A stretch of DNA of 64,000 nucleotides, taken from positions 25,546,001 to 25,610,000 of the forward strand of contig CM059432.1 in assembly GCA_030390025.1 (NCBI GenBank), given 5' to 3'. Of the stretch, positions 2,041-64,000 are shown piece after piece. This DNA is from Squalus acanthias (lineage: Eukaryota). Within the stretch, counting starts at the first letter, position 1; every line of letters starts with the position of its first letter. The notes beneath the pieces are model-generated. The model saw only the letters and a list, made by a program, of their open reading frames with translations, was not told where the DNA came from and made no database searches. Position numbers and translations under genes: made by a program.

Positions 2041-2054
2041 CTATTGGCAATATG

Positions 2055-10062: not shown

Positions 10063-10420
10063 AACAACTTGCATTTATATAGCGCCTTTTATGGCCTTAG
10101 GACATCCCAAAGCAATTTACAGCTAATGAAATACTTTTGAAGTGTAGTCACTGTAGTAATGTAGGAAACGCTGCAGCCAATTTACACACAGCAAGGTCCC
10201 ACAAGCAGCAATGTAAATGACCAAATCATCTGTTTTAGTGATGTTGGTTGGGGGATAAATATTTTCCAGGACATCAGGGAGAACTCTCCTACTTTTCTTC
10301 GAAATAGTGCCACAGTATCTTTTATGTCCACCTGAGAGGGCAGACGGGGCCTCGGTTTAATGTCTAATCCAACAGTCCCCCAGCACTGTGGTGTCAGCCT
10401 ATATTTTGTGCTCAAATCAG
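10063..10420 (-). mobile_element. DeuSINE, head missing
   Basis: acttgcatttatatagcgcc tail; Deu core cagcaaggtcccac...ttggttg.gggataaatatt...cacctgagagggcagacggggcctcggtttaa. Confidence 0.85.
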
Positions 10421-12333: not shown

Positions 12334-14310
12334 GTGTGTTAATATTTTCAGGATTCTCTGGCAGTGTATTAATATTTTCAGGATTCTCTGGGAGTGTGTT
12401 AATATTTTCAGGATTCTCTGGGGGTGTGTTAATATTTACAGGATTCTCTGGGAGTGTGTTAATATTTTCAGGATTCTCTGGGAGTGTGTTAATATTTACA
12501 GGATTCTCTGGGAGTGTGTTAATATTTTCAGGATTCTCTGGGAGTGTGTTAATATTTACAGGATTCTCTGGGAGTGTATTAATATTTTCAGGATTCTCTG
12601 GGAGTGTGTTAATATTTCAGGATTCTCTGGGAGTGTGTTAACTATTTGGATTCTCTGGGAGTGTGTTAATATTTACAGGATTCTCTGGGAGTGTGTTAAT
12701 ATTTTCAGGATTCTCTGGGGGTGTGTTAATATTTACAGGATTCTCTGGGAGTGTGTTAATATTTACAGGATTCTCTGGGAGTGTGTTAATATTTTCAGGA
12801 TTCTCTGGCAGTGTATTAATATTTTCAGGATTCTCTGGGAGTGTGTTAATATTTACAGGATTCTCTGGGAGTGTGTTAATATTTACAGGATTCTCTGGGA
12901 GTGTGTTAATATTTTCAGGATTCTCTGGGAGTGTGTTAATATTTTCAGGATTCTCTGGCAGTGTATTAATATTTTCAGGATTCTCTGGGAGTGTGTTAAT
13001 ATTTTCAGGATTCTCTGGGAGTGTGTTAATATTTTCAGGATTCTCTGGGAGTGTGTTAATATTTACAGGATTCTCTGGGAGTGTGTTAATATTTTCAGGA
13101 TTCTCTGGGAGTGTGTTAATATTTACAGGATTCTCTGGGAGTGTGTTAATATTTTCAGGATTCTCTGGGAGTGTGTTAATATTTACAGGATTCTCTGGGA
13201 GTGTATTAATATTTTCAGGATTCTCTGGGAGTGTGTTAATATTTTCAGGATTCTCTGGGAGTGTGTTAATATTTTCAGGATTCTCTGGCAGTGTATTAAT
13301 ATTTTCAGGATTCTCTGGGAGTGTGTTAATATTTTCAGGATTCTCTGGGGGTGTGTTAATATTTACAGGATTCTCTGGGAGTGTGTTAATATTTTCAGGA
13401 TTCTCTGGGAGTGTGTTAATATTTTCAGGATTCTCTGGGAGTGTGTTAATATTTACAGGATTCTCTGGGAGTGTGTTAATATTTACAGGATTCTCTGGGA
13501 GTGTGTTAATATTTTCAGGATTCTCTGGGAGTGTGTTAATATTTACAGGATTCTCTGGGGGTGTGTTAATATTTACAGGATTCTCTGGGAGTGTGTTAAT
13601 ATTTACAGGATTCTCTGGGAGTGTGTTAATATTTTCAGGATTCTCTGGGAGTGTGTTAATATTTTCAGGATTCTCTGGCAGTGTATTAATATTTTCAGGA
13701 TTCTCTGGGAGTGTGTTAATATTTACAGGATTCTCTGGGAGTGTGTTAATATTTTCAGGATTCTCTGGGAGTGTGTTAACATTTACAGGATTCTCTAGGA
13801 GTGTGTTCATATTTTCAGGTTTCTCTGGGAGTGCGTTAATATTTTCAGGATTCTCTGGGAGTGTGTTAATATTTTCAGGATTCTCTGGGAGTGTGTTAAT
13901 ATTTTCAGGATTCTCTGGGAGTGTATTAATATTTTCAGGATTCTCTGGGAGTGTGTTAATATTTTCAGGATTCTCTGGGAGTGTGTTAATATTTTCAGGA
14001 TTCTCTGGCAGTGTATTAATATTTTCAGGATTCTCTGGGAGTGTGTTAATATTTACAGGATTCTCTGGGAGTGTGTTAATATTTTCAGGATTCTCTGGGA
14101 GTGTGTTAACATTTACAGGATTCTCTAGGAGTGTGTTCATATTTTCAGGTTTCTCTGGGAGTGTGTTAATATTTTTGGGGTTCTCTGGGAGTGTGTTAAT
14201 ATTTTCAGGATTCTCTGGGAGTGTGTTAATATTTTTTGGGTTCTCTGGGAGTGTGTTAATATTGTCAGGATTCTCTGGGAGTGTGTTAATATTTTTGGGA
14301 TTCTCTGGGA
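12334..14310. repeat. 30-bp minisatellite, ~66 copies, with degenerate units extending left to ~12090
   Basis: Unit gtgtgttaatatt(t/a)caggattctctggga-like repeated head to tail with no unique spacers. Confidence 0.99.
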
Positions 14311-14427
14311 CTGTTAATATGATTACACTTGCAGACAGAACAGAAGTGTTTTGCAAAACGGGCACCTAATCTGTGTTTAATGTTTCCAGTGTGATTGTAC
14401 CATGAACATTAGATACATTATACTAGA

Positions 14428-26140: not shown

Positions 26141-28280
26141 GGGATTGATTGTAATAGCCCTGAGGAGGCAGGTTTGGAGGCGGGTCTGTTGGGAAAATCG
26201 GGAAATATGGCTTCAGACATCCAACCCACCTCCATCCCGCCCCCACCCGATTTTCCTGAGTGTCTGTTCAGCCGCTCCCAAACTGACCCGTCTCCAACCG
26301 GTGGGACAGGTAGTTAAGGCAGTTAACAGCCTGTTAACTGCCTTGCTAATCCTATTTTCATAGTGGTTTCCCATTTTCCTGCTTCTGGCTCCTGTTTCCC
26401 GACTTGTCAGAAACAGTCCAGGTTCAAGGAGACGAGTTGCTGGAGGGCATAATTTGTATGCATTGGTGGAGCACATTAAAAGCGCCCCTGAAACATGGCT
26501 GACATTCAAATACAACAACTTTGCAGTTGTAGGTATGGGATAAGATTTTGCACATCTACTGACCTTGTGACTGTTCATGCTGACACCCATCTGCAGTGTG
26601 TCATGAATGGAAACATTTCAGGCCACTTCCACTGTACACTTGCAAGATTGTTACCTCAAATGAAATCTATAGCAAGGGGATGGGAAACATTTATGCCCTC
26701 TCATCCTGGTCCTCATAATTGGGGGAGTAGCAGCCGCATGGCTCACCACAGATCTTCCTGGGAAGAGGAGTAGGAGGAGGAGGAGGGGAGCCTTGCATGC
26801 CCTGTTGTGACCAATGTAGCATCCCTCCAGTTCACTGCTGCCCGTCAACCAGGATATGTACACTGCCATGCCACACTACCATAAGCTTACTCTTCGACCA
26901 TAGGTGGCCACCATATGGCTCTGTAATTGCAGGTGACACTTGTCCAATGTCATACTTCATCACTTTTACCATCAGCATTACAAATGCAAGTCACCCTGAG
27001 CCCTCAATGCGCTTTTGCCATTTCCCAGAACACATAGGCCACACAATCAACTGTTTGACATAATTTATCTTTAACACGTGACAAAATATACCAGCAAGAG
27101 TCAGAAAAAAAAGAAACATCACCCAAGTGGGTCTCCTTGTGAGTTTAGGTGCTTAATCTTTCTCTTACGCGTGCTTCTACGTGGTGCTTCCCCTGTGGCT
27201 TCAGCAGATGTAGAGGCACCTTGCTGACTAGGATGCTGCGCTTACTTAGACACCTTTGGCAGGCGTCCTCTGGGTTTGGGAGCCTGGGAGGGCTCTTCAA
27301 CAGTTTGCTCTTCCTGCGGCTGTGCAGGGGCTGAAATGGCCATCTCAGTTGTCTCTGCAAAGTGGGTCTCTGAGCGAGGGCTCTGCAGTGACATGGTCGT
27401 GTGAGCGCTTTGAGAGGAGCCCACAATTCCTTCTGTCCTGCCAACAACATCCCTCTCATGGGTCAACCACACCTCAGTGCTGGCAAGTGGCAGGAGAACA
27501 CCTTACTGCACTTCAGGGGGGACCATGAGGACCCGTATCCGCACTGGCAGTCCTCCTCAAAAGGACATCCATGAAGCTCTGGTCTCTCTGCTCAATAGCT
27601 GCCCATCGCTCCTCCAGAGATGTCATTCTATTCTGAACAGTCACCATGTTTTCCTGACTCTGGCAACTTATTTCCTCCATGGCCGTAGCTATCCTTTCCA
27701 CTGAGGTAGCCATCCTATCCATGGTGGTGCGTTCATGCGCCATTGCCTCCACCACGGCAATGCTGATGTTAGAGATGGACTCCTCCATTCTCCCCACACT
27801 CGCTCTAACTCTGGAGGCAAACCCTTCCAGAGACACCTGAACTTGTTCCTGTATTTCCCGAGACGCTCTTTTTCTGGATGGTCCCAGAGGCACAGCATCT
27901 GCATTCAGCTCAGCAGAGCTAGGAGAGTCCTGCGACCTCCACAGAGGACTCTCCACTGCTGTCGCTGTCTCCACCATCTGCTGATGCTCACTTGTGCGCT
28001 GTGATATACCAGGTGGCAACACTACTCGAACTCACGATGGCCCCACCGAGGTGTGCGTTGCTGCACTGGTGCTGGGTGCGCTGTGTCCTGGTGACGCTAG
28101 TCCCTCAGAGGCTTCAGGTTCCTCTGAGGAGATGTCCGGCTCTTCGTCCTGGATCGTGGGGAGGGGGGCACTCGATGGTCCTGTGGGAGAGTAAAGGCTT
28201 GAATTAGACATCTGATATTGATGTAGCAAAAATGAGAGGTCGCACAACACCAGGTTATAGTCCAACAGTTTTATTTGAAA

Positions 28281-28317
28281 TTATGAGCTTTCGGAGCGCT
28301 GCTCCTTCGTCAGGTAA
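28281..28317 (-). ncRNA. Minimal type I hammerhead motif (core intact)
   Basis: Minus strand TTAC-CTGACGA-A-GGAGC-AGC-GCTCC-GAAA-GC-TC-ATAA; one mismatch in stem I. Confidence 0.75.
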
Positions 28318-28320
28318 AGT

Positions 28321-28357
28321 TTACCTGAAGAAGGAGCAGAGCTCCAAAAGCTCGTAA
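28321..28357 (+). ncRNA. Minimal hammerhead motif with GAAA changed to AAAA (probably inactive)
   Basis: TTAC-CTGAAGA-A-GGAGC-AGA-GCTCC-AAAA-GC-TC-GTAA; stem I TTAC/GTAA. Confidence 0.65.
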
Positions 28358-30032
28358 TTTCAAATAAAACTGTTGGACTATAACCTGGTGTTGTGCGACT
28401 TCTCATTTTTGTCCACCCCAGTCCAACACCAGCATCTCCGCATCATTGATGTAGCAGACACATCCTTTTGAGCAGATGATACAAAGCGATTCTCTGTGAA
28501 CATCATATTCCATTGCTTTCTGAGAGGGATGAAACTCTATTATGTCACCAGCTTCCTCTTGTGTGCCCGTCTCTCCATCGCCCACTTTCCTGTCCTCGCC
28601 ACTGCCAACAATCTCGTTTGCTGCCTCCTCAGCACTGGTCAATGTTGCAAGGGTAGGTGTTCCTCCTCCAGTCAGTGCTCTCTCCCTCTTATTGTGGGCT
28701 ATCATTTCCTGCAAGGAGGGACACAAGTGGTGTTTCAGCCACAGTGATGGAGTGAGTGTGATTAACCCCTACCATAGAAGCATTGAGTGAGACGAAGATG
28801 GGGTAAGGTGCCAAGAGGCAGGTAGCTCCCTGCGCGTTGTTAGTTGTTGCCACTGCATGACAGTGACAGCGAGTCTAAGGGGTGCATAGGCAGGATGCTG
28901 AAGTGATTCAGTGCAGAGACAGAGATAGATAGGAAAGGGTGCAAGGGAAGTAAGAGTAAGGTGGGATGTGAAGGAGGAGGCTTACAACGCAGAGTGCTGG
29001 TGATGAGAAGAGAAGGGATGCAGAGTGAAGGCAAGTGAGATGTGATACTCACTTTTGATGTTCTCACAAGATCATTAACCTTTTTGCGGCACTGCATCCA
29101 AGACAGTGCATAAATGGACCTTGCGCTGACCTCCTGAGCAATGCACAGCCAGGCTGCCTTGGTCTGCTGAGGAGGCTTTCTCCAGCCGTCCGGAGGGAAG
29201 GGAATCTCCCTGTACCCTCTGACAGCATCCAAAAGAACTTGGAGGAACTCATCATTAAAACAAGGAGCTGCCTTGCCTCTGGAAGAAGTCATTGCTTTTA
29301 AAAGAAGTGCAGGAAACCACAATAGAAAGGCTCAGGCTGGATGACAACTTTAAAAGCAGCTGCTATTATGACGTCATCAGAGGCAGCCAGCCGACCCGAT
29401 CCCACTCATTGGACGAGCCAGCGCACCTCCATGAAATTAACAAGGTACTTTAATAAAAATTGCAACTCTGCAGCTGTTCCTGCCGGAAGCGGCTCCCGAA
29501 CCCGCCCACCACGCAACCCGACTCCAACCCGCCTCGGGAATTAAAATCGAGCCCGTTAACTCTGTTTCTCTCTCCACGATGCTGCCTGACCTGCTGAGTG
29601 TTTCCAGCAGTTTCTGTTGTTGTATCTTATGACAGAGACTTGCATTTATATAGTGACCTCAGTACGTCCCAGAGCGCTTTACGGCCAATGACGTATGCTA
29701 GAAAATAGATAAGTTTTTATATTGTTTTAATACAGAACGAAGACAGAACAGCTAATGGAGGCAGAATTGGTTTAAACTGTATGCTTGCAGATCTGATCTT
29801 TTGATCACAATGACACTGAGATAACATTGGAGAAGGATGAAACTTTAGGCAATGGGACAGGCTACTGACAAGGATATGCCCCTATGGTTGTGCGTGTTCA
29901 GCAATCTGTTTAACGGCCGAAGCTGCCCAACAAAATTAAACTCAGCAAGAATTAGACAATGTATGATTGTTTTTTAATATTTTATAAAGGAGGAACACAA
30001 AGCAAAACTCAGTTAGGAATTTTAGTTACCTT

Positions 30033-44152: not shown

Positions 44153-45636
44153 ACATGAACTCTGCCTCCTCCTGTTTGTGTTTCTCCCTCTCCCAGTTTG
44201 TGTTGCTCTCTCTCCCTTCCCCAGTTTGTGTTGCTCTCTCCCTACCTCCATTCCCCCAGTTTGTGTGGGGATAAGGATGCAGGCTGCAGGGAGGAGGGCC
44301 AGAATGCTAGCTATGGCACACTGGAGCAGGAGGCAGTCCAAGTGGGGAAGGAGCAGAATAGGAAGGCTCTAGGGATAGGGGATTCAATAATTAGGGTGAT
44401 AGATAGCGTCCTCTGCAGTCACACCGAGAGTCCAGGAGGATGTGTTGCCTACCTGGTGCAAGGGTAAAGGTTATCTCAGAGCAACTGGAGAGGAACTTGG
44501 AAAGAGATGGGGAAGATCCAGTTGTCATGGTCCATGTTGAGATCAATGACATAGGAAAGAAAAGGGAGGAGGTCCTGCTAAGGAATATGAGAATTTAAAA
44601 CTAAATTAAAAAACAGGACCTCATGGGTGGTAATTTCGGGATTACTACCCAAGCCACGTGTTAATTGGCATAGGGATAGACAGATCAGAAAGGTGAATGC
44701 GTGGCTGAAAGAAAGAAAGACTTGCATTTATATAGCATCTTTCACGACTACCAGATGTCCCAAAGCGCTTTACAGCCAATGAAGTACAGTCACTGTTGTA
44801 ATGTGGGAAATGCGGCAGCCAATTTACACACAGCAAGGTACCACAAACAGCAATGTGATAATGACCAGTTAATCTGTTTTTGTTATGTTGGTTGAGGGAT
44901 AAATATTGGCCAGGACACCAGGGATAACTCCCCTGCTCTTTTTCGAATAGTCCCATGGGATCTTTTACATCCACCTGAGAGAGCAGACAAGGCCTCAATT
45001 TAGCGTCTCATCCAAAAGACAGCAGCTCCGACAGTGCAGGCACTCCCATCAGCATTGCACTGGAGTGTCAACCTAGCTTTATGTGCTCAAGTCGTTGGAG
45101 TGGGACTTGAACCCACAACCTTCTGACTCAGAGGCGAGTGTGCTACCCACTTTTTTTTAATATACTTTATTGAACATTAAGAACATTTACAACATCATGA
45201 TCATTTCATTGTATCATACAAATCAATTCCGCCGCTCTGCACAGCCATTCCTCCATCACATTTTAACATCAAAACCTGAAGTTTAATTTGTCTCCCGTAA
45301 CATATATTAATCAATTGTACTTTAAAAATTGATTGTAAAATACTATCTTTAAATTCCTTTCTGAATAAAACATCCACAGAGCCTTATAATGATCTTTTAG
45401 CTTATATTTAAAATACTCTTTTAGATTGATTCTCCTCCCCTTAAAAAACAGAGCATTCCTTCTTTGCACAATCACGAATCTAGCCAAACTGAACATTAAA
45501 TTAATTGCTGCTCCGCTAGACACGGGCAGACTCTCCTGCAATCTCCATCTCAAAATTGAGTCCCACGGGATTCCCATTCTCGCTCTTCGGTCCCCACCCA
45601 GCAAAAAAACTTCACACAACTGTCGAACATAGTACT

Positions 45637-47027
45637 TGTAGGGGGTGGAGTGGTAGGGTCAGCCTCACCTCTGACTCAGTGAGTGGTTCGAATCGCTCCC
45701 ACGCCCCTGGTTCTAGACCTTGGACTTATTTAGGGATTGTGAACAAAGATGCAGTAGACAACAGGTTCCGATGAAAGAATTTTGACTTTATTAAAAGAAA
45801 AAGGTAACAAACTTAAAACACACTTAAATGCTTAAACACAGGTTGGGAACACACGGTACAGGCGAGAGAGAATTACAATATACAAAAACTCTTATCCCAC
45901 CCAATCCCACTTCACTAGCTAGGTTGGACTCTGGAGAACCAAGGATAATGCTCACCAAACGACTCCTTGGCAGTTGAGAGTTAGGGTTTAGAGTCTTTTG
46001 AGTAAAAGGTTTCATAAGGCCCTTGTTGCCGCGAGGTGTCCGATGGTCACTGAGGCGGTCACTCTGGTCTCTTGAACTGCTGGCCTTCTTTGTTGTACTT
46101 CTTTCTGTTGAACTCTGCCTCTGTTTAAACTGTCTTCTTCCAAGCTGTGGAACTGCCTTCTTGCAGAACTGTGGAACTCCTTGCTGCTTCTCTCCTCCTC
46201 CTGCTCGTGTCGTGTGGCTCCTGTAGCAGTGAGTAACTTGCTGAGTCTTGCTGGGGGGATAGGCCCTCAATTATATTGTTCAGGCCCATTGTATTTTTTG
46301 CGCCAAAACCGCTTTACTAAATCGGTTTCGTGTTGAAGTGATTTAGGTTTCAGTTGAGGCCTGTTCATTCCATTGTCTTAGGTTTTGGCGGGCTCGTTAA
46401 GTTTTGATGATTTTAACTTGGTGTTAAATTGTCCTGATGGCTTCCGATGTCATCCATTTAGGCAGGGCCTTTATCTACGCGCCAAATCTCATCCCTTTTG
46501 TCTTAGGTTTTTGGCGGGCTTGTTAATCTGTCCCTGTAGATACTTGGCTGATTGGTTTTTGATGGGGTAATGGGTGTACTGGATGTTTTATTGTTTTCAG
46601 GCTTCTAGCATCCTGTTTGGGCCTGGGGATTTCAAAAGGGGTCTTGGATTATTCATTTTTGGATGTGTATGTGAGGTTTTGGGTGAGGCTCTTCCTCCCT
46701 GGTTGGATTGCAGTGCAAACATTTCCCAGACAGCTTGACTGGGCCCCAATACTCAAAAGATGACCACTGCCTCACCACACCCTTTCCTGCAGCCTGTGGA
46801 GTTTCTGTGACTGCAGGTTTTCCCAATGGCCTTTTTAAAGGTATAGTATTTTTCCAAAGTCATTTTCCTCAGAGTTTTTCTTCCCTGATCCTTAAAAATG
46901 TCCAAAACTGAGGTTTTGACCTCAAATCACTTCATTTAGGTCCCATCATCCCAAATTTGTATAAAAATCCAAAAATCACCCCTTTAGGGTTCTGTTCGAG
47001 TTTCTGGGGGATTTTGTGAAGCCTACA
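45637..47027 (-). mobile_element. Solo LTR (1391 bp), Gypsy- or ERV1-like judging by the 4-bp TSD
   Basis: Termini TGTAGG...CCTACA; TSD TACT at 45633-45636 and 47028-47031; minus-strand AATAAA near 45790 and TATAA near 46272. Confidence 0.85.
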
Positions 47028-48646
47028 TACTTAAAATCATTTAACTGCAGACACAACACCAGTAAATGGGAGAGTCTCATCCCGTGTCCCACACACTGGG
47101 CAAGTTGCCCCCTCCACTCGTTCAATCTTACATAAGACCATCATGGTAAAAATCCGGTTATGAGCCAATTTGAAATCCAGTTCAATCCACTCTGGACATT
47201 TAAAATTCGCCCATACTTCCTTCCAAATCCTGTTGAAGTCCAGCTGTGGGTATATACTCTGCCAAAACTCCTGACCAGCAGGTGTCTTGAATCTCCATTC
47301 TCTAAACACCTCATAGAAATCTCGAGTATTACAGTTGTCAAATTGGACCAACTCTCCCCCTTTCTCCAGCAGAAAGCTTGGAAAAGCGGGACGCATTTTA
47401 CTTCCTTTGGAGATTTCCGCATTTATTTCTTCCATCCAATCCTGTGGCATTGCCCTCACAATCTTCTCATACATGATCCCTATTGCTTTTTCCTCTACCT
47501 CCTGATCCTCCTCCCACACCATGTCCCTCACCATCGCTTCCGGCAACCAACCTGGAATTACCTTATATAACACATCTTTCACACATATAATACCAGCTTT
47601 TATAAAAGCTTGATTAAATAATACCTCTCCTTCAATGTTGACTCACCTGTTCAAAAATAAGGGCTGTTCTAAAAATTCCTCAGCCCCCTTGGGCATAAAC
47701 TGCACACTTTTTAAAAATTGGGCCCAAGTCTCTACAACCCCCTTATAAAACCTAGGGAGAAGTTTAATTGATTTCAAAAGCATATTATTGTATTCCATAT
47801 ACAATATCCCCTGCCCTCCTATCCCACTTCATTTTTAAAAATGCTCAAAACAACTCTTCCAAAAACTTGTATTTGACTTCTGAAGAAATCTCTTCACCCA
47901 TTTGATTCTAAAGGATTTTTTCTTCAAATCAATATCTGGGAAATTGAGTCCTCCCTGATTTCTCCATCCAATGATGGTATTGTAAGCCACCAAGGCTGGT
48001 TTCCCTTCCCATAAAAATCTGACACAAGCCTCTCGGATGGACTTTTCTGCCCACTCAGGAATATCCTCCACCGTCAATAAGTACCATAGCTTAGATAGCA
48101 GGAGAGCGGACACCACTGTCGCTCTTCAATGCACTTACAACCACCTCCTTTCCCATCTTCCCAAAATCTTTTTAATTTTCATAACCTTTGGTTCCCAATT
48201 TAATCGATCCACTTCCTCCCTGTCTTTCTTGCACCCCATATGCACCCCCAGAACTTCCAAAACCTCCACCACCTTAAAGGGACTTTCCTCCAACCATTCC
48301 CCCCATATCCCTTCCTGCAACCAGGCATTGGGACGTACTATAATTCACTCTGGCTCCTGAAGCTCTACAATACTCCTCCACTACATCCATAGCTTTCTTC
48401 ACTGACTCCCCATTTCTCAACGTTAAGGTTGAGTCATCTGCATATTGGTGTATCACTGACACCAGCCCAGAACTGGGAACCGCAATCCCAACTACACCTT
48501 GTTTCTTTCGCATCATGTAACCTAATGGTTCTGCTACCAATGTGTACAACAATGGGCATGATGCGGAGATGCCGGTGTTGGACTGGGGTGGACAAAATTG
48601 AGAGGTCGCACAACACCAGGTTATAGTCCAACAGTTTTATTTGAAA

Positions 48647-48689
48647 TCACAAGCTTTCGGAGCTATCGATTTGCTCCTTCCTCAGGTGA
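48647..48689 (-). ncRNA. Minimal type I hammerhead motif
   Basis: Mirror image of 49706..49748. Confidence 0.8.
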
Positions 48690-49705
48690 AGTAAATTAGA
48701 TACAGAATCTCCAAAGCATATATAGCTGGAAAACAAAGCATGTGTACTTTACAATTGCAGACCAATAAATTAAATCATCCTGACTATCTGCCGAGGTGTG
48801 ATAAAGTTAATTAAGTCAGCCAGGAAGGTACCACATCAAAGACATAGCAAGATACAACTGAGACAATGAGGTGTAGTCGCAGGGGTTCTAACGTGTCAAA
48901 AGCTGCCGTCTGTATGTAAAACGAAAAGCTTTAACATTTTTTTACTTTTTTACTGGGAAAATTTTTACTTTTTTACTGGGAATCACATCTGTGAACAAGC
49001 TAACGACGACTCGAGTCCGGATCACGTCATGTATCGTGACATAAACCCAAGATCCCGATTGAGACCGTCTTTATGAGTGCGGAACTTGGCTATCAGTTTC
49101 TGCTCGATGATTTTGCGTTGTCGTGTGTTTCTAAGGTTGCCTTGGAGAACGCTTACCCGCAGATCCGAGGCTGAATGTCCTTGACTGCTGAAGTCAAGGA
49201 CATTCAGCAGTCAAGGACATTCAGCCTCGGATCTGCGGGTAAGCGTTCTCCAAGGCAACCTTAGAAACACACGACAACGCAAAATCATCGAGCAGAAACT
49301 GATAGCCAAGTTCCGCACTCATGAAGACGGTCTCAATCGGGATCTTGGGTTTATGTCACGATACATGACGTGATCCGGACTCGAGTCGTCGTTAGCTTGT
49401 TCACAGATGTGATTCCCAGTAAAAAAGTAAAAATTTTCCCAGTAAAAAAGTAAAAAAATGTTAAAGCTTTTCGTTTTACATACAGACGGCAGCTTTTGAC
49501 ACGTTAGAACCCCTGCGACTACACCTCATTGTCTCAGTTGTATCTTGCTATGTCTTTGATGTGGTACCTTCCTGGCTGACTTAATTAACTTTATCACACC
49601 TCGGCAGATAGTCAGGATGATTTAATTTATTGGTCTGCAATTGTAAAGTACACATGCTTTGTTTTCCAGCTATATATGCTTTGGAGATTCTGTATCTAAT
49701 TTACT

Positions 49706-49748
49706 TCACCTGAGGAAGGAGCAAATCGATAGCTCCGAAAGCTTGTGA
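49706..49748 (+). ncRNA. Minimal type I hammerhead motif
   Basis: TCAC-CTGAGGA-A-GGAGC-AAATCGATA-GCTCC-GAAA-GC-TT-GTGA: stem I TCAC/GTGA, stem II GGAGC/GCTCC, palindromic AAGCTT in place of stem III. Confidence 0.8.
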
Positions 49749-50803
49749 TTTCAAATAAAACTGTTGGACTATAACCTGGTGTTGTGCGACCTCTCAATTT
49801 TGTACAACAATGGGGACAGGGGACAACCCTGTCTCACTGACCTCTGTATCAGAAAATACTTGGATAAAAACCATTACATTTAACACAGCTAAATATGTTT
49901 GAATAAAAAATCCTTATCCACTAAATGAAATTTCCCCCCAAAACCAAATGCTTCCAAAACCTTCAATAAAAACTCATGAGAGACCCTATCAAAGGCTTTC
50001 TCTTGATCTATCTTTAATACATAAGCCTCCCTCCCACTCTCTTCCATGAGCTCTATCGCATCTCGGATTGAGACCACAGAGTCTGCGATGTCCCGGCCTA
50101 TGACTCCATAGGACTGAGAGGGCAAAACTAGCTGCGGCAACACCTCCTCTATACGATTTGCCATAACCCTCGCCAAGATCTTATAATCCACATTTAATAA
50201 TGTGATGGGTCTCCAATTCTTCAGATCCCTTCTATCCCCTTTATTTTTATAAGCTAAGCTTATGACACCTCTTCTCATAGATGGGGCCAGGCTTCCCTCA
50301 TTTTTAATTTCCTTAAAAACTCCTAAGAGCAATGGACTTAAAATCTCGAAAAATTCTTTGTAAAATTCTGCACTTAGTCCATCGGACCCTGGGCTTTCCC
50401 CCCCCGCTTCATTCCACTTATTGCTACTTTTATTTCCGCTAATCCTACTTCTTTGTCACACATGCTTCTCTCATCCACCTTTAAACCCTCTTCAATAAAA
50501 GCACTAACCTTCTCCATCACCAAATTGGAAATGTCTTCTTTTGTATATAACTCTTGATAAAAGCTGCTAGCCGCCTCTAAAATGTTCCCACTTTCATGAA
50601 TGATCTTCTCCCCAACCTTCAACTCTCCAATTAATGATAATCTCTGTCGCAGCTTCTCTTGCTGTAGAAAATATCTAGTGCATCTAGAACATAGAACAGT
50701 ACAGCACAGTACAGGCCCTTCGGCCCTCGATGTTGTGCCGAGCATTGTCCGAGACCAAGACCAAGCTATCCCACTCCCTATCATTCTGGTGTGCTCCATG
50801 TGC

Positions 50804-53560
50804 TTATCCAATAACCGCTTGAAAGTTCCTAAAGTGTCCGACTCCACTATCACAGCAGGCAGTCCATTCCACACCCCAACCACTCTGAGTAAAGAATCTA
50901 CCTCGGACATCCCTTCTATATCTCCCCCCATGCACCTTATAGTTATGCCCCCTTGTAACAGCTACATCCACCCGAGGAAATAATCTCTGAACATCCACTC
51001 TATCTATCCCCCTCATCATCTTATAAACCTCTATTAAGTCGCCTCTCATCCTCCTCCGCTCTAAAGAGAAAAGCCCTAGCTCCCTCAATCTTTCCTCATA
51101 AGACCTCCCCCCCAAACCAGGCAGCATCCTGGTAAATCTCCTTTGCACTCTTTCCAATGCTTCCACGTCCTTCCTATAGTGAGGTGACCAGAACTGCACA
51201 CAATATTCCAAATGTGGTCTCACCAAGGTCCTGTACAGTTGCAGCATAACCTCACGGTTCTTAAACTCAAACCCCTTGTTAATAAACGCTAACACACCAT
51301 AGGCCTTCTTTACTGCTCTATCCACTTGAGTGGCAACCTTCAGAGATCTGTGGATATGAACCCCCAGATCCCTCTGTTCCTCCACGTTCCTCAGAACCCT
51401 GCCGTTGACACTGTAATCCTTATTCAAATTTGCCCTACCAAAATGAATCACCTCGCACTTATCAGGGTTAAATTCCATCTGCCATTTTTCGGCCCAGCTC
51501 TGCATCCTATCAATGTCTCTTTGCAGCCTACAACAGCCCTCCACCTCATCCACTACTCCACCAATCTTGGTGTCATCAGCAAATTTACTGATCCACCCTT
51601 CAGTCCCCTCCTCCAAGTCATTGATAAAAGTCACAAACAGCAGAGGACCCAGCACCGACCCCTGTGGCACACCGCTGGTAACTGGTCTCCAGTCCAAAAA
51701 TGTTCCATCCACCACCACCCTCTGCCTTCTGAGATAGCCAGTTACTTATCCAATCGGCCAAATTTCACTCTATTCCACAACTCCTTACTTTCTTCATGAG
51801 CCGACCATGGGGAACCTTATCAAACGCCTTACTAAAATCCATGTATACGACATCAACTGCTCTACCTTCATCTACACACTTAGTTACCTCCTCAAAGAAT
51901 TCAATCAAATTTGTTAGGCAAGACTTACCCTTCACGAATCCGTGTTGACTATCCCGGATTAAGTTGCATCTTTCCAAATGGTCATAAATCCTATCCCTCA
52001 GGACCTTTTCCATTATCTTACCAACCACCGAAGTAAGACTAACCGGCCTATAATTACCAGGGTCATTCCTATTTCCTTTCTTGAAGAGAGGAACAACATT
52101 CGCCACTCTCCAGTCCTCTGGCACCATCCCCGTGGACAGTGAGGTCCCAAAGATCAAAGCCAAAGGTTCTGCAATCTCCTCCCTTGCCTCCCAAAGAATC
52201 CTAGGATATATCCCATCCGGCCCAGGGGACTTATCGACCCTCAGGTTCTTCAAAATTGCTAAAACATCTTCCCTCAGAACATCTACCTCCTCCAGCCTAT
52301 CCACCTTTATCACACATTCATCCTCAAAAACATGGCCCCTCTCCTCGGTGAACACTGACGAAAAGTATTCATTCATCACCTCTCCTATCTCTTCTGACTC
52401 CATGCACAAGTTCCCACTACTGTCCTTGACCGGCCCTACCCTCACCCTGGTCATTCTTTTATTTCTCACATAAGAGTAAAAAGCCTTGGGGTTTTCCTTG
52501 ATCCAACCCGCCAAGGACTTCTCATGCCCCCTCCTAGCTCTCCTAAGCTCTTTTTTTAGCTCATTCCTTGCTCCCTTGTACCCCTCAATCGACCCAACTG
52601 AACCTTGTTTTCTCTTCCTTACATACGCTTCCTTTTTCCTCTTGACTAGACATTCAACCTCTTTTGTGAACCATGGTTCTCTCACTCGGCCATTTCCTCC
52701 CTGCCTGACAGGGACATACCTATCAAGGACACGCAGTAATTGCTCCATGAAAAAGCTTCACTTTTCGTTTGTGCCTTTCCCTGATAGTTTCTGTTCCCAT
52801 CTTATGCTCCCTAATTCTTGCCTAATCGCATCATAATTACCCCTCCCCCAATTATAAACCCTGCCCTGCCGTATGGCCCTATCCCTCTCCATTGCAATAG
52901 TGAAAGTCACCGAATTGTGGTCACTATCTCCAAAGTGCTCTCTCACATACAAATCAAACACTTGGCCCGGTTCATTACCCAGTACCAAATCCAATGTGGC
53001 CCCACCTCTTGTCGGCCTATCCACATATTGTGTCAGGAAACCCTCCTGCACACATTGTGCAAAAACTATCTCATCTGAACTGTTTGACCTATAAAGGATC
53101 CAATCAATATTTGGAAAGTTGAAGTCACCCATGACAACTACTCTGTGACCTCCACACCTATTCATAATCTGCTCTGCAATTTCTTCCTCCACATCTCTAT
53201 TACTATTTGGGGGCCTGTAGAAAACTCCTAACAACGTGACCGCTCCTTTCCTATTCTAACTTCAGCCCATATTACCTCAGACGGCAGATCCCCCTCGAAC
53301 TGCCTTTCTGCCGCTGTTAAACTATCCTTGATTAACAATGCTACTCCTCCACCTTTCTTACCACCTTCCCTACTCTTACTGAAACATCTATACCCCGGAA
53401 CTTCCAACAACCATTCCTGTCCCTGTTCTAACCATGTCTCCGTAATGGCCACCACATCGTAGTCCCAAGTACCAATCCACGCTCCAAGTTCTCCTACCTT
53501 ATTCCGGATGCTCCTTGCATTGAAGTAGACACACTTCAAGCCACCTTCCTGTCTGCCGGT
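50804..53560 (-). pseudogene. CR1 ORF2 (APE + RT) with about four frame breaks
   Basis: NARSIRNK, ITETWL, GDFN, SDHN, KSPGPDG, SGVPQGSVLGP and FADDTK spread over successive ORF fragments. Confidence 0.9.
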
Positions 53561-53652
53561 ACATTCCTGCGACCTTGATACCCTCCTCAGTACCTCCCTA
53601 CACTCACCACTGGCTCCTGGACTACAGCCCTTTTTCCCATCCCCCTGACAAA

Positions 53653-54579
53653 TTAGTTTAAACCCCCCCGAAGAGCCGTAGCAAATTTCCCTCCCAGGAT
53701 ATTGGTGCCCCTCTGGTTCAGGTGCAAACCGTCCTGTTTGTACAGGTCCCACCTTCCCCAGAATGTGCTCCAATTATCCACATAACTGAAACCCTCCCCG
53801 CTACACCATCCCTGCAGCCACGTGTTTATCTGCACTCTCTCCCTGTTCCTCAACTCGCTAGCACGTGGCACCGGCAACAAACCAGAGATTACAACATGGT
53901 TTGTACTGGCTCTCAGCTTCCAACCTAGCTCCCTAAATTCCTGTTTTAAATCCCCGTCCCTTCTCCTACCTATGTCGTTGGTACCGATGTGTACCACGAC
54001 TTGTGATTGTTTCCCCTCCCCCTTGAGGATTCTGGAAACACGGTCCGAGACTTCACGGACCCTGGCACCCGGGAGGCAACATACCATCCGTGAGTCTCTT
54101 TTGCTGCCACAGAACCTCCTATCTGTCCCTCTGACTATTGAGTCCCCAATAACTATTGCTCTCCTGCTCTCCCCCCTTCCCTTCTGAGCCACAGGGACGG
54201 ACTCAGCGCCGGAGATCCGGTCAACGTGGCTTACCACTGGTAGGTCGTCCCCCTCAACAGTATCCAAAGTGGTATACTTGTTACTGAGGGGAACGACCAC
54301 AGAGGATCCCTGCACTGACTGCTTCCTCCTAGCCCCTCTCACCGTCACCCATCTATCTTCATTCTTTGGAGTAACTACATCCCTGAAGCTTCTATCTATG
54401 ACCACCTCTGCCTCCCGAATGATCCGAAGTTCATCCAGCTCCAGCTCCAGTTCCCTAACGCGGTTTTCGAGGAGCTGGAGATGGGTGCACTTCCCACAGG
54501 TGTAATCAGCAGGGACACCGACGGCGTCCCTCACCTCAAACATTCTGCAGGAGGAACATTTCACTGCCTCCCCTGCCAT
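53653..54579 (-). CDS. CR1 ORF1 protein (CxxC...CxxC zinc finger, coiled coil, SGNH/GDSL esterase-like domain)
   Basis: 308 aa with CSSC...CGKC, LENRVRELELELDEL, IGDSIVR, HIGTND and DGLHLN. Confidence 0.9.
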   Translation of the reverse strand: MAGEAVKCSSCRMFEVRDAVGVPADYTCGKCTHLQLLENRVRELELELDELRIIREAEVVIDRSFRDVVTPKNEDRWVTVRGARRKQSVQGSSVVVPLSNKYTTLDTVEGDDLPVVSHVDRISGAESVPVAQKGRGESRRAIVIGDSIVRGTDRRFCGSKRDSRMVCCLPGARVREVSDRVSRILKGEGKQSQVVVHIGTNDIGRRRDGDLKQEFRELGWKLRASTNHVVISGLLPVPRASELRNRERVQINTWLQGWCSGEGFSYVDNWSTFWGRWDLYKQDGLHLNQRGTNILGGKFATALRGGLN

Positions 54580-54783
54580 CCCCCCCAGCTAACTTGCGGA
54601 TTAAACTAGAACAAGAAAGAGCTTACCTGATATTCACTCACCCCCTTTAGGTTAGAGGAGGTGGAAGGGTGGGGGACACTACAAGTGTAGTGTCTCGGGT
54701 TTAGGAACCGCCCAACTTATATATAGGTAAAAATTAATCACCTACCCAGCAACCACTGCGTCCCGCACTATAAAAGCACTCAA

Positions 54784-54997
54784 CAGGTCCGCCTCCGCCG
54801 CTGCTCCTGCTGCTGCTCTGGGCCTCGCTGCCGCCTCGGGCTTACCTTTTGTACTCCGCTCTCCTCCGCTCCCTCACAGGTCCGCCGCCTCCGCCGCCGC
54901 GCTGCTCTAGGCCTCGCTGCCGCCTCGGGCTTACCTTTTGTACTCCGCTCTCCTCCGCTCCCTCACAGGTCCGCCGCCTCCGCCGCCGCACTGCTCT
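54784..54997 (-). repeat. 89-bp GC-rich monomer repeats (~2.3 copies) at the CR1 5' end
   Basis: cttaccttttgtactccgctctcctccgctccctcacaggtccgccgcctccgccgccgc recurs at 54841 and 54930. Confidence 0.9.
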
Positions 54998-55980
54998 CCA
55001 ATGCATCTCTAGCCTTTGCACGGAGAATGGCCCCTTTACATTTTTCAGCTTGCAATAATTCCCACTCCTCCTTTAACACCCGGAACTTAGTCTCAGCTCC
55101 CTTATCCCTTCCGTCAACTGCTTTACAGACATCCGTAAACCTTCTGTTTATATTCTCTTCTCGACGCCGGTTAGCTGCCGCTCTCTTTTTCCCATAACAT
55201 ATCGAAAAAACTTTTACCTCATATTTGAAATTGTCCCACCAAACTCTTCTTTCTTTCAAGAACAAAGGTTCCTTCTGAGCATTCTTTATTATATTTAAAC
55301 TCCCTTCTTTATAAGCAATTTCTTTCATGTATTGATTGTTTAAAATCCACACCCCTGAAACAATCTTAACTCTGCTGTTCCTAATTCTAAGAACCAAAGC
55401 CGAGTGGTAACTAAAAAATACTTTTTTTAGAATAAATCTCCATCACCTCAGAACTTAACCCTTCCCGCATTAACACAAAATCTATTCGGCTCTGTTTTAA
55501 AATAACACCCACCCAACTCCCTTTTTATGGGGTTCTGGTCCCTCCATAAGTCTCTCAAATTTAAATTTGCCATCATTTTTACAATCATCCCTCTGGAGTT
55601 ATCATCCTTAAAGGTCAACTGGGCTGAAATGTCCATCTGAGATAGAAATACATTAAAATCCCCCACTATACAAGGATTTTCCACCTCTGCCACTTCAGTG
55701 AATAACCCCCGAAAAAAATCGCGACGCTTGCAATGGTCGTTCGGTGCATAGATATTAAAGAGATCGCAATTAAATTCCTCCATTTTTACACTTAGCCATA
55801 AAAATCTCCCCTCAGTGTCCTTTGTCCACCAAGGCAACGTTCTCTTTTGTGGACGGACTCACCAAAACAGCCACCCCTCTACGGTTATTGTTTGCATAAC
55901 TTGCAAACACCTCTCCCTTCCAAACCTTCTGAACTCTTTCTAGGATATCCTCATCCCAAAAGGTTTCTTGCAGACACAAC

Positions 55981-56730
55981 GGGCTGGATTTTGAATGACC
56001 CATGGAGTCAGGTTTGGAGGCATGTGGGGGGTTAAATTTGCGGGGTCGGGGTTTCCGACCCCATCCCGGCTCCATCCCGCCTCCACGCAAGTTTGACAAA
56101 CTCAGTCACGGGGTTCCCGACTCCATCCCGCCTCCAAGAGGCGGGAGAGGCCATTAAAGCCCTTAACAAGCTCTAAATTGGCTCTGTAATGCCATTTTGA
56201 AACGTTTTAGCTAGTTTAACCCTTTTCTGACGTGAAGTACGCCTGGTGTGAAACACTCCAGTGAAACCTGGCGGGAGCACAAGTGGACAGCTGACGGTCC
56301 ACTATTACAACGGAGATGTGATGAAGGTGGTAGTAGTAGTATTAGGTCTGAAAGTCGCCGCTGCTGCATTGAATGTGTTCAGAGACTGCCTGGCCTTTGC
56401 TGTGAGAGGACTTGGATGCAAAAAAAATTCATTCTCATTCTCTCTCTCTTTTCTCCCCCCTGTCCCACATTTTACATCCAGGTCCACTCACATCAAAAGC
56501 AAGCCATGCAGGTCCTCTCTCACCAACAGTCTCTGAGACTAGGCAGTCAGCAATGATGACATCATCAGAGGCGACTTTCAGACTGAAACCACTAATTGGT
56601 TCATGGGTTCCCACATGCTGGAACTCAATTGCCCAATTAAGTGAAAATTGCATCATTCATCCACATTAATCTGGAGTCGGGGGGGAAACACGAAATGCGG
56701 ATTACACGACCCCAAGACAAAATCCAGCCC
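55981..56730. mobile_element. Harbinger-type MITE (750 bp) in the Tx1 endonuclease region
   Basis: TIR GGGCTGGATTTTG / CAAAATCCAGCCC; TSD AAC. Removing it restores GTDLLCLQET. Confidence 0.93.
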
Positions 56731-56860
56731 AACAAGTCCGTGCCTTTAAAACCCTGCAACAACTGAAGCAATTTCTTCTCACCCCTCAGTCCGTTCACAT
56801 TAATCGAGACCGATATAATCATGGCTCCGAAGAAGGGAAGTTTGCCTGATAATCTCCCCA

Positions 56861-58480
56861 TCATTTAATCTCTGGCCCTTCCCTCTCATGCTCCTTCCCA
56901 ACTTTTTGGCCAGCTGTTGCTTTTTCCTGCAGCCTCTGACTCTTTTTCACCTCCTGTTTGAACGTTCCCTGCTGTTTCAGCCTCTTCCTTGCATTAAGTT
57001 TGGGCCAAGGAGCTGCCCTTTCTCCCTCCTTCTGCCCCTCACTAACCTTTCCCTTTCCACATGATGCCACTTCACCCCCCACTTCCATGTCTCTGTCCCC
57101 CTCTAATTCCTCACTCTCAAGCTCTTCTGTAACCTTCTGTGCCTGCTCCCCGTCAGATACATAATCCTGCTCCCCGTCAGATACATCGTCTCCCATAGAG
57201 AGTCTTGCTGCTATCGCGGTTTCTCCAACAGTGCCGCTCCCTTCGACCTCATCTCCACCGCTGACCCTTGCTCCCTGATCCTTCTCTCTCTGGGACAATG
57301 GCGCACCTATATTGCTCCCTTCTGGTGTCTTTGTCTCACCGCTCCCGTCCTGCTGCCCCTTTAAGGCTCCTGCCTCTTGCACCCTCTCCTTGTCTTGCCC
57401 CCTCCTGCTCACCGAGATGTCCGACTCCCTATCTTTCTTTGGAGTACTTACATTTACCACGCACCCCGCTCCCACCTCCTCTCCCCCCGCAGACACCAGA
57501 TTCTTTAGGGAGAGCGGAACCATATTATGGCTCGACTCTGCCCTCGACCCGTGCTGCCTTCTGCTGTCTTTGTTCTTTTCCATTGTACTTGGTGTATTTT
57601 CCACCATCTCCATCCTGTTCTCTGCTCCGCAATTTTCTACCTCTTCCTGCGCTCTTTTCTCCTTCAGTTTACCAGCTGTGTCCTCCGACTGCTCCGCTCC
57701 TCCGGCCGTTTCACTCACACCTCCTTCTCCCATCTCCTCGTCACTCATAGAGCTTCCTTCTGCCTCACACTCACAGCGGGTGGGGTCTTTGTGACACACC
57801 CCACAGCTCTCCGCCTTGCAGCCACAAGCGATGTGTCCAGACTCGCCGCAATTATAACAGTACATGTCCGGACAGTTTCTTACAAGATGGTCGTGTCCAA
57901 GACAATAATCACAAACCTTCACTTGGTTATCATGCAGTACTCGGAAGTACTGCACTCCTTCCATTGTCTCGAATTTCATGCTGCACGGTAATGACTTCAC
58001 CCCCTCTGGGAACCGCACCTTTACGTAACGGATTCCATCTGCTACCCGTGTTCCTGGATAGTATCTCCTCTTTATTGCTGAACAAATTTTAATGTCCCAC
58101 AACTCCAACTTTTTGATTAGCACATCGTCCTCAATATAAACTGGCAAGTTTAAGAATGAGACCACCACCTCTTCCGAATATAGCAGAGATACCTCCAAGA
58201 ACTTATCGCCAACCTTCAAACTGAGTAAAAGTCTTTCCACCTCCTCTCGGCCACTGACCGTCACCTCGAACCCAACATTCGGCTTTGGTCGGCAGGCAAA
58301 GCAGCTTCCCTCGCCGCAGTCCTCAGGTACCGCCTGGATAATATCCCAAGCTCGTATCTCCTTATCCTCGCACTGAACCACCACCGTGTTTTCTTTTCCA
58401 ACCCTCCTGGGGTCCCGGCCCAAATCTTTGGGCCCTTTTCTTTCCCTTCCAACCACAGTTTCTCCCCTGATTAAATTCAT
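56861..58480 (-). CDS. Tx1-like ORF1 gag-like nucleic-acid-binding protein with zinc knuckles (ZCCHC3-like N-terminal half)
   Basis: 539 aa open frame; CDYCLGHDHLVRNC and CYNCGESGHIACGC (CX2CX4HX4C) plus a further Cys cluster; low-complexity acidic C-terminal half; directly upstream of ORF2. Confidence 0.88.
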   Translation of the reverse strand: MNLIRGETVVGRERKGPKDLGRDPRRVGKENTVVVQCEDKEIRAWDIIQAVPEDCGEGSCFACRPKPNVGFEVTVSGREEVERLLLSLKVGDKFLEVSLLYSEEVVVSFLNLPVYIEDDVLIKKLELWDIKICSAIKRRYYPGTRVADGIRYVKVRFPEGVKSLPCSMKFETMEGVQYFRVLHDNQVKVCDYCLGHDHLVRNCPDMYCYNCGESGHIACGCKAESCGVCHKDPTRCECEAEGSSMSDEEMGEGGVSETAGGAEQSEDTAGKLKEKRAQEEVENCGAENRMEMVENTPSTMEKNKDSRRQHGSRAESSHNMVPLSLKNLVSAGGEEVGAGCVVNVSTPKKDRESDISVSRRGQDKERVQEAGALKGQQDGSGETKTPEGSNIGAPLSQREKDQGARVSGGDEVEGSGTVGETAIAARLSMGDDVSDGEQDYVSDGEQAQKVTEELESEELEGDRDMEVGGEVASCGKGKVSEGQKEGERAAPWPKLNARKRLKQQGTFKQEVKKSQRLQEKATAGQKVGKEHEREGPEIK

Positions 58481-59402
58481 CTTGGGAACACTGTCCTCTG
58501 AGGACTCCGGACCCCTCAGCAGCCACCTGGCTGCTGTTTATGGGCCAAAAAGGCCCTAAAACCTGAAAAAAAAAACCACCACCAACTTTTTACAAGCTCA
58601 CTCCAACTCCCTGCAGTAATCAGGCAACCAGTAACACCTGCTCACACCTGCTACCCACTGAGCCACAGCTGACACGGTGACTGGTGTGGGAAGGAGGGGT
58701 TTCATTTCATGGGACACTGGCACCAGTACTGGAAGAGGAAGGAGCTCCAATTGAACTGGAATAGAACCAGAGTCCCAGCGGAAAGGACAAATAGGGCTGT
58801 GGATAGGACTTTAAACTAGTAAGACGGGGGAAGGGATGTATTGAAAAGAACATAAACGTGAAGATGAAAGAAATAGGAGTTGAGAGTAAATGTCAGACCA
58901 ATGTTAAGAATAAGGGTAACATAAGTGGTCAGGGAACAGATACAGTTGTGGAACATAAGTATAAAATGACTATTAAAAATAAAGTGATGGGACAATTAAT
59001 AAAAACAAATTAAATTGCCTGTAGCAATATACACAGCATCTAAAACAAAATGGGGGAACTGGAGGCAATAATTCACAGCGAGCAGCCAGATGTAGTAAGG
59101 ATAACTGAAACATGGCTTAATAAAGAACAGGACTGGTAGTTAAATATTGCAGGATCTAATGCATTTAGAAAGGATAAGGAAGGAGGGGGAGTGGGATAGC
59201 TGTATCAATTAGAGATAACACAATGAAAGTAGAATAAAAGGGACATAACAAACATTAAGATAGAAACGGAATCCTTATGGATTGAGACAAAGGATAAGAA
59301 GGGATCGATCACATTCATGGGGTAATCTACAGACTACCTAATAGTGAAAGGGAAGTGGAGAAAGAAATATGTAGGCAAATCTATGAAATGAGTAAAAGAC
59401 AT

Positions 59403-62895: not shown

Positions 62896-63192
62896 CATAG
62901 AGTCAGAGGGCTGGATTTTGTCTTGGGGTCGGGTTGGGGTTGTGCAATCCGCATTTCGTGTTTCCCCCCCGACTCCAGATTAATGCCTGATGCAATTTTC
63001 ACTTAATTGGGCAATTGAGTTGGAGCATGTGGGATCCCATGAACTAATTAGTGTTTTGAGTCTGAAAGTCGCCTCTGATGATGTCATCATTGCTGACTGC
63101 CTAGTCTCAGAGATTGTTGGTGACAGAGGACCTGCCTGGCTTTTGATGTGAGTGGACCTGGATGCAAAAATTGGGGGGGGGGGGGGGGCGGG

Positions 63193-63232
<40 letters not shown>

Positions 63233-64000
63233 TTTGCAACCAAGTCCTCCCGGGCAGTCTCTGAAGACATTCAATGCAGCAGCATCAGAGGCGCCGTTCA
63301 GACCTAATACTACTACTACTACCTTCATCACATCTCCATTGTAATAGTGGACCTGCAGCTGATAGTCAGCTATCCACTTGTGCTCCCGTCAGGTTTCACT
63401 GGAGTGTGTCACACCAGGCGTGCTTCATGTCAGTAGAGGGTTAAACTAGCTACAGCGTTTCAAAATGGCATTACAGAGCCAATTTAGAGCTTGTTAAGGG
63501 CTTTAATGGCCTCTCCCGCCTCTTGAAGGCGGGACGGAGTCAGGAACCCCGCGACTGATTCTGTCAAAATTGCGTGGAGGCGGGATGGAGTTGGGATGGG
63601 GTCGGAAACCCCGACCCTGCAAATTTAACCCCCCACACGCCTCCAAACCCGACTCCATGGGTCATTCAAAATCCAGCCCATAGAGTCATAACGGCACAGA
63701 AGGAGGCCATTCGGCCCATCGAGTCCGTGCCGGCTCTCTGTAGAGCAATCCAGTCAGTCCCATTCCCCCACTCTATCCCTGTAGCCCTGCAAGTTTATTT
63801 CCCTCAAGTGCCTATCCAGTCTCCCCTTGAAAACATTGAGTGTCTCCGCTTCCACCACTTCCGTCGGCAGCGAGTTCCAGGTCCTCACCACTCGCTGCGT
63901 AAAAAAGTTTTTCCTCACGTCCCCCCTGTATCTCTTGCTCAAAACCTTAAATCTGTGTCCCCTAGTCCTTGTACCATCAACTAGTGGGAACAGCCTTTCC
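62896..64000 (-). mobile_element. 3' end of a CR1 LINE (tail split by the MITE; continues past the window)
   Basis: ORF 63754..63942 RKNFFTQRVVRTWNSLP; catagagtca|tagagtcata tail. Confidence 0.9.
62908..63679. mobile_element. Harbinger-type MITE, inverted sister of 55981..56730, inserted in a CR1 tail
   Basis: Same TIRs; flanks aga/ata inside (catagagt)n; internal G-run and (GA)n. Confidence 0.9.

Follow-up and report, generated by a model that had tools for sequence, protein, structure and literature searches.

A 64,000-nucleotide stretch of Squalus acanthias DNA (GenBank assembly GCA_030390025.1, contig CM059432.1, positions 25,546,001 to 25,610,000; hereafter the window) holds a decayed long interspersed element (LINE) of the Tx1 type that appears to be full length. 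It is inserted at tRNA position 14 of the tRNA-derived head of a short interspersed element (SINE), in the same orientation as the SINE, and its family likely prefers this site by virtue of an endonuclease predicted to nick in the A box/D loop. We put the probability of this reading at roughly 0.7. The best reading of the data as a whole is a target-preferring Tx1 element, from a lineage that targets tRNA and 5S rRNA genes, using SINE heads as landing sites. Because ends leading off target also occur among other copies, SINE-head targeting looks like a preference and not an absolute rule.

Insertion of the element into a SINE head

The LINE spans 13,497 bp of the minus strand (45152-58648), with an A-tail and an exact 11-bp duplication at its ends. 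In the order in which the interrupted SINE is read, the features of the insertion site are:

58660..58672, minus strand: first 13 nt of the SINE head (tRNA columns 1-13, 5' half of the A box)
58649..58659, minus strand: target-site duplication, 5' copy (tRNA columns 14-24)
45141..45151, minus strand: target-site duplication, 3' copy
44708..45140, minus strand: rest of the SINE, with B box, body and (TTTC)n tail; 71-82% identity to five other fragments in the window

An initial sequence-only reading had proposed that an 11-bp duplication overlaps the A box and that LINE and SINE are co-oriented, and both points are confirmed. Exactly two copies of the 11-mer are present in the window (plus strand, 45141-45151 and 58649-58659), and no longer word is common to the two ends. 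One copy adjoins the A-tail (45152-45158; AATAAA at 45166-45171), the other the 5' end of the LINE. The chance of such a match is about 1e-4, given the base composition and allowing 10 bp of slip per side; random pairs of 31-bp windows had an 11-mer in common in 23 of 20,000 draws. The first A of the duplication is ambiguous with the A-tail, and microhomology with the LINE 5' end may account for its last AGCA; the true duplication therefore measures 7-11 bp. It starts at tRNA column 14, in the 3' half of the A box, and LINE and host SINE are both on the minus strand.

To characterize the host, the pre-insertion site was rebuilt in silico. ARAGORN called a tRNA there at a relaxed threshold of 80 and none at 90 or 100; it found no tRNA genes in the whole 64-kb window. 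The rebuilt site matches tRNA-Asp at 35 of 72 positions without gaps, a value reached by 2 of 2,000 shuffles. By the relaxed call and the tRNA-Asp match, the site is a SINE head with A and B boxes. Two intact heads elsewhere in the window (5869 and 32104) run uninterrupted across the insertion site, and the body of the host SINE extends to about 44708. By its general resemblance, we take the host to be a putative SacSINE1-type Deu-SINE of a shark. Its tRNA-like head, length of about 450 bp and simple-repeat tail are like those described for SacSINE1 and LmeSINE1, whose whale shark copies measure 97-463 bp (PMC5499810).

Many other 3' ends run into the same SINE-head sequence

To ask where other copies lie, the contigs of four runs (X1-X4; four organisms, three studies) were aligned to 45126-45637, a query consisting of 26 bp of SINE flank and the LINE 3' end. 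These contigs come from other species, and the query reports on 3' junctions only. Of the 24 listed runs, 20, covering seven organisms, contain part of the ORF1 (first open reading frame) region, at most 0.47 of its words; no RNA data set is among those listed, which has no bearing on expression. Depth was expressed in single-copy units, defined as the median depth of eight long contigs listed per run, a measure that is inflated by contig overlap and is not a copy number.

The family is abundant, with a LINE body depth of 2,000-13,000 single-copy units in the four runs. Summed depth in the SINE-flank bin is 81,592, 7,870, 45,378 and 5,339 for X1-X4, or ∼2,220, 740, 2,300 and 630 single-copy units, again inflated by contig overlap. 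Over the four runs the raw ratios of flank to body depth are, in rising order, 13, 17, 18 and 31%, a depth proxy and not a count of loci. A crude correction for edge effects (depth also drops at the right edge of the query, where the LINE continues) raises it to 25-83%. For comparison, a Tx1 family has been regarded as target-specific when >20% of its flanks are of one type (PMC4494074).

Individual contigs point the same way. A longer tail directly at the duplication, with a T inserted behind 45150, was seen in 7, 8, 17 and 5 contigs of X1-X4, and these contigs, at least 37 in all, must cross the junction. In X1 and X3, flank and tail together are covered by 27 contigs whose loose part is the LINE 3' end, and two of the listed contigs cross the junction (X1 record 1, X4 record 25). 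Among the X3 loose ends, both a variant of the SINE and its B-box region can be made out. Contigs with any non-fitting part number 173 of 2,679, 226 of 2,882, 128 of 2,250 and 114 of 1,089 (X1-X4), and the share that runs on unlike the query is 0. A single orthologous locus was rejected as the source of the junction contigs, as it would give one or two contigs of single-copy depth per run.

Could these data reflect random insertion into an abundant repeat, with flank depth supplied by SINE-only contigs that match the 26-bp flank? SINE heads are indeed common (3 in the 64-kb window), no minimum match length is given for the aligner, and in X4 depth is higher on the duplication than on the tail. 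With three sites in 64 kb, however, the chance that a random insertion falls at this bond is ∼2e-5, and for 2,000-13,000 copies fewer than one exact-site insertion per genome is expected by chance. The 37 contigs with a tail insertion, which have to cross the junction, also speak against this explanation, as does the lack of an empty-site loose end (behind 45151) among the 24 loose-end rows listed, beyond which 458 more exist. If 26-bp matches are aligned, 30-bp overlaps of junctions with random flanks should turn up in their thousands, whereas partly aligned contigs number at most 114-226 per run; if such matches are not aligned, the flank depth is itself junction depth. Either branch favours site preference. 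We regard random insertion as largely refuted and its remaining likelihood as very small.

A different possibility is that one or a few chance insertions of LINE into SINE were amplified as composites, whether by read-through into the SINE tail, as part of a larger mobile unit or by segmental duplication. The contigs of related organisms, which show 3' junctions only, leave room for this, and the tails of SacSINE1-type elements, which are L2-derived, could offer a handle to the enzymes of another LINE (PMC5499810). On the other hand, the window copy is a direct insertion, because both SINE halves are present around it together with the duplication. Tail lengths vary among the contigs, and in X3 a consensus of loose ends (6 contigs, agreement 0.61) represents a variant of the SINE that differs in a D-loop letter. 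Relatives of the element, described below, have the same habit. We regard amplification of composites as an unlikely source of the shared flank.

The sequence-only reading had called for the flanks of other copies to be compared, and had proposed a possible target specificity that, as it noted, a single insertion could not establish. In the approximation made here, many 3' ends run into the same SINE head, and off-target flanks occur as well. The inference of target specificity gains support, in that recurrent 3' junctions are far above chance and relatives lie in tRNA D-loops or 5S rRNA.

The contigs also contain a second kind of junction. In X2, X3 and X4, respectively, 7, 6 and 6 contigs depart from the LINE at 45333 and go on with sequence of the ORF2 start region (∼56813-56842). 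Read by eye, an element joined in this way keeps ORF1 and an in-frame mini-ORF2 of about 25 codons. This points to a shared, internally deleted derivative of the LINE that retains ORF1, resembling the non-autonomous L1 derivatives cited in PMC4494074.

Close relatives lie in tRNA and 5S rRNA genes

From genome bins and metagenomes, scans with ORF1 and ORF2 alignments recovered LINE DNA of animal type at 93 loci. The metagenome relatives are the best 80 of 495, ranked against a stand-in query, and hence the sample of the clade is small. Six loci score 752-1,082 against the window element and all others 496 or less. A first tree comprised 90 loci and the window element, three rows having been dropped for low coverage or lack of a match. 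A second, built with IQ-TREE from ORF2, has 42 rows (29 chosen loci, 12 proteins and the window element) and no L1 outgroup. In the latter, the window element, the six top loci and ten proteins form a 17-row clade with support of 100/99; the same grouping has 0.987 in the first tree. In place of named references such as Tx1L, Keno, Mutsu and Dewa, the tree contains U2-, U5- and 5S-flanked elements and a protein labelled 'Transposon TX1' (46% identity), and placement of the window element inside the Tx1 clade by RT phylogeny is tentative.

Of the six clade members with DNA, five abut a gene of the kind transcribed by RNA polymerase III (Pol III), two in the tRNA D-loop at position 21 and three at 5S rRNA; the sixth, L003, has no flank. 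The tail of L084 is joined to column 21/22 of tRNA-Asp in a 496-499-bp tRNA array, and its 5' end follows the first ten tRNA bases. The tail of L002 is joined to position 21/22 of tRNA-Tyr, with the 5' half of a Lys-like tRNA upstream, and its contig may merge two loci. The joined flanks of L002 give a tRNA call with default ARAGORN; the tRNA halves were identified by direct reading, without an Rfam match. These two are the only loci of the 93 with a tRNA gene, and they rank first and third in similarity to the window element. L082 and L083 are joined to 5S rRNA at two different sites. For L005, a 5' part of 5S upstream was recognized by direct reading and by 22 nt in common with L001, without an Rfam match. 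L001 itself, an ORF1 relative outside the tree, is in tandem in 5S, with two copies in a 5S tandem array.

In these contigs, the Tx1-like elements within tRNA genes, at the end of the D-loop, occupy 2875-7130 of L084 and 810-7090 of L002. The Mutsu-like elements, whose 5S rRNA sites are not all the same, are at L001 500-760, L082 4420-4540, L083 2745-2845 and L005 68-98. L001, L082, L083 and L005, along with other LINE contigs, are animal DNA within bacterial genome bins.

Rfam was run on 40 of the 93 loci. Among these, five loci flanked by U2 and one flanked by U5 fall outside the clade of the window element. These Tx1-like (Keno-like) loci adjacent to U5 or U2 are L036 (453-1025), L004, L007, L012, L042 and L085, and they form two separate clades in the tree.

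Site choice: mechanism and points against

The identified targets of the clade raise the question of whether a protein partner, rather than the endonuclease, guides the element. Ty3 and the TRE elements of Dictyostelium are targeted by tethering to Pol III factors. Tethering to such factors at the A and B boxes would account for the fact that all identified targets of the clade (tRNA, 5S, SINE) are Pol III genes with internal promoters, and for the sense orientation of all insertions. Most nick sites of the clade are followed by AG, and beyond this their sequences have little in common, also as tethering would have it. Against it, the insertion lies at a fixed base within the promoter footprint and not at a distance, and for most old SINE copies binding by Pol III factors is improbable. 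Moreover, target specificity in the Tx1 clade is set by the endonuclease, according to PMC4494074. We consider tethering improbable and favour sequence reading by the endonuclease.

Several observations weigh against the preference for SINE heads proposed here, or against its link to the relatives. Compared with the tRNA-targeting relatives, the nick site is displaced 7 nt upstream; relatives are only 35-40% identical over ORF2, and the tree does not settle the position of the window element inside the 17-row clade. The junction evidence comes from contigs of other species, every listed run has less than half of the query words, and the contigs show no 5' junction for any other copy. The aligned flank, at 26 bp, falls short of the 31-letter rule for bridging. 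In X4, depth is 6,225 at 45150 compared to 2,713 at 45158, and part of what counts as flank in that run may not represent junctions. The raw flank-to-body ratios, 0.13-0.31, straddle the 20% level of PMC4494074. Loose ends before the tail have a mixed, partly non-SINE consensus (14+14, 11+16, 6+9 and 17 contigs), several of them carrying CCAC or ACCA beside the T-run, and a further 458 loose-end rows lie beyond those listed.

How might insertion proceed? From what is known of Tx1 biology, a bottom-strand nick just before A14 or G15 would allow reverse transcription to be primed on the A-tail; the duplication would then arise from a second nick, placed up to 11 nt downstream. Insertion at this point would part the A box from the B box, and that SINE copy would presumably be silenced. 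The lineage may have been aimed ancestrally at Pol III genes and, in sharks, may land mostly in the far more numerous SINE heads. Given the 7-nt distance and the AG that follows most nick sites of the clade, a shift of site within one lineage would be plausible. Put more broadly, and at slightly less than even odds in our estimation, this could be a Tx1 lineage specialized on Pol III internal promoters (5S rRNA, position 21 of the tRNA D-loop, the A box of a shark SINE), in which a 7-nt shift of the cut and a switch from tRNA genes, which number in the hundreds, to the vast supply of SINE heads let the copy number rise into the thousands, with a SINE promoter split by every copy, and in which an ORF1-only derivative arose.

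If this holds, it would amount to a LINE that preys on SINE promoters, and to a natural series of endonucleases for the study of target switching. The clade joins 5S, tRNA and SINE targets and hence offers a testable path by which an APE (apurinic/apyrimidinic-type) endonuclease changes its site, which would be useful for work on site-specific gene insertion. The data suggest that mobile elements of one class may disable promoters of another class on a large scale. They also suggest that a preferred target, if it is abundant, is compatible with high copy number.

Comparison with known target-specific elements

Mutsu presumably belongs to the Tx1 clade. It is a LINE of zebrafish specific for 5S rRNA genes (PMC3706591, PMC10946416). 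Like Mutsu, the window element is inserted within a sequence of the Pol III gene type, and the 100/99 clade unites it with three 5S-adjoining elements that are Mutsu-like by target. Unlike Mutsu, it occupies a tRNA-type SINE head, and it is outside the 5S subclade (97/95) of a tree that contains no named Mutsu sequence.

The use of another abundant mobile element as a landing site is reminiscent of Tx1L, which resides in Tx1D, and of crocodilian Tx1-Mar, Tx1-8_Crp, Tx1-4_AMi and Tx1-9_AMi. The targets of those elements are DNA transposons or LTR (long terminal repeat) elements, and the text of PMC4494074 names no SINE target. Dewa inserts in the spacer of tRNA-Leu arrays and Keno in U2 small nuclear RNA genes (PMC3706591, PMC4494074, PMC4640811); both are APE-type LINEs, as is the window element, and are specific for multicopy small-RNA loci. 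The window element differs from Dewa in lying inside tRNA-derived sequence, in a window with no tRNA gene, and from Keno in that the U2-flanked loci are outside its clade.

The Dada-tY, -tK, -tN, -tR and -tS DNA transposons insert in the A box of tRNA genes (nucleotides 8-13) with 6-7-bp duplications (PMC8869645), so that their site adjoins the one used here (14-24). Dada encodes an unrelated enzyme, being a DDE DNA transposon, whereas the window element encodes APE and reverse transcriptase (RT) and ends in an A-tail; the likeness in target is convergent. The word SINE is absent from the main text of PMC8869645.

Published targets of Tx1-type elements comprise piggyBac, Mariner, Harbinger and LTR elements, microsatellites, U2, U5, 5S (Mutsu) and tRNA-array spacers (Dewa), and NeSL-related LINEs target tRNA genes (PMC4494074, PMC3706591, PMC10946416, PMC4640811). 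The window element is set apart from Mutsu, Dewa and Dada by its target. No Tx1 family in a SINE head or tRNA D-loop was found in the literature searched, which excludes Repbase, Dfam, most subscription papers, figure labels and supplements, and a database entry may exist. Target-specific Tx1 LINEs are thus known already; relative to that literature, what is new is the SINE promoter as a target and tRNA D-loop insertion by close relatives.

Structure of the LINE and its nested inserts

The sequence-only reading had placed the LINE insertion at 45141..58675. A correction concerns its make-up: the LINE itself accounts for only ∼5,768 of the 13,497 bp (5.77 kb), and four nested inserts swell it to 13.5 kb. 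From 5' to 3' on the LINE, the parts are:

58481..58648, minus strand: 5' untranslated region, 168 nt
56861..58480, minus strand: ORF1, 539 aa, open, with a CCHC zinc-knuckle region
56731..56822, minus strand: start of ORF2 (ATG 56822-56820), N-terminus of the APE endonuclease
55981..56730, no strand: nested 750-bp insert resembling a miniature inverted-repeat transposable element, with terminal inverted repeats and a 3-bp duplication; 84% identical copy at 62908-63687
55002..55980, minus strand: ORF2 endonuclease and linker, frameshifted
50686..55001, minus strand: nested full-length CR1/L2-type LINE (4.3 kb; GDSL-esterase ORF1, APE-RT ORF2), with a 7-bp duplication at 50679-50685 / 55002-55008
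49801..50685, minus strand: ORF2 linker and first part of RT
48557..49800, no strand: nested 1,244-bp near-perfect palindrome (arms 585/586 identical), with a 14-bp duplication at 48543-48556 / 49801-49814
47028..48556, minus strand: second part of RT and C-terminal region of ORF2, with stops and frameshifts
45638..47027, no strand: nested solo-LTR-like insert of 1,390 bp, bounded by TG...CA and flanked by a 5-bp duplication (boundaries only)
45269..45637, minus strand: C-terminus of ORF2
45152..45268, minus strand: 3' untranslated region, with AATAAA (45166-45171) and A7 tail (45152-45158)

Assignment to the L1 group and to Tx1 is based on both reading frames and on the ends. The N-terminal 27-50% of ORF1 is 38-54% identical to 24 proteins, 22 of which carry a precomputed zinc-knuckle Pfam domain (PF00098 or PF13696). 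The invariant C/H columns of these homologues are common to the window ORF1 in the alignment; scanned on its own, the window ORF1 has no match in Pfam. The domains of the homologues and the common C/H columns indicate an ORF1 with CCHC zinc knuckles, as in Tx1, and the A-rich tail and target-site duplication are likewise Tx1 traits. ORF2 has the N-terminal APE endonuclease, RT and C-terminal cysteine-rich region of the L1 group. Its closest solved structures are those of L1 ORF2p (RT, E 1e-23; endonuclease, E 3e-4), with R2 far weaker.

ORF2 is broken by stops, frameshifts and the four inserts, each of which has its own duplication. Ten collinear segments nevertheless span residues 46-1299 of an intact 1,301-aa APE-RT homologue. 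One of the stops (45311-45313) is private to this copy, since another letter is found at 45313 in 96-99.7% of the depth in the related contigs. Neither self-BLAST nor tblastn revealed a second copy of the LINE within the 64-kb window.

Other repeats in the window

The palindrome at 48557-49800 has ends that match 28217-28446 and, by eye, a hammerhead-like word pattern; together these features suggest a young Penelope-like insert. A hammerhead ribozyme in the palindrome was considered and is supported neither by folding (z -0.56) nor by Rfam. On the window as a whole, Rfam gave no match at the gathering score, and a scan by E-value returned hairpin-type matches in the palindrome and weak matches. 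The nested CR1/L2-type LINE has an 89-bp GC-rich tandem repeat (2.4 copies, 54783-54997) at its 5' end. Two further CR1/L2-type segments, 3266-5469 and 14943-17153, are 96% identical and inverted relative to each other, and a 30-bp tandem repeat at 12154-14314 comprises 72 copies with 91% matches.

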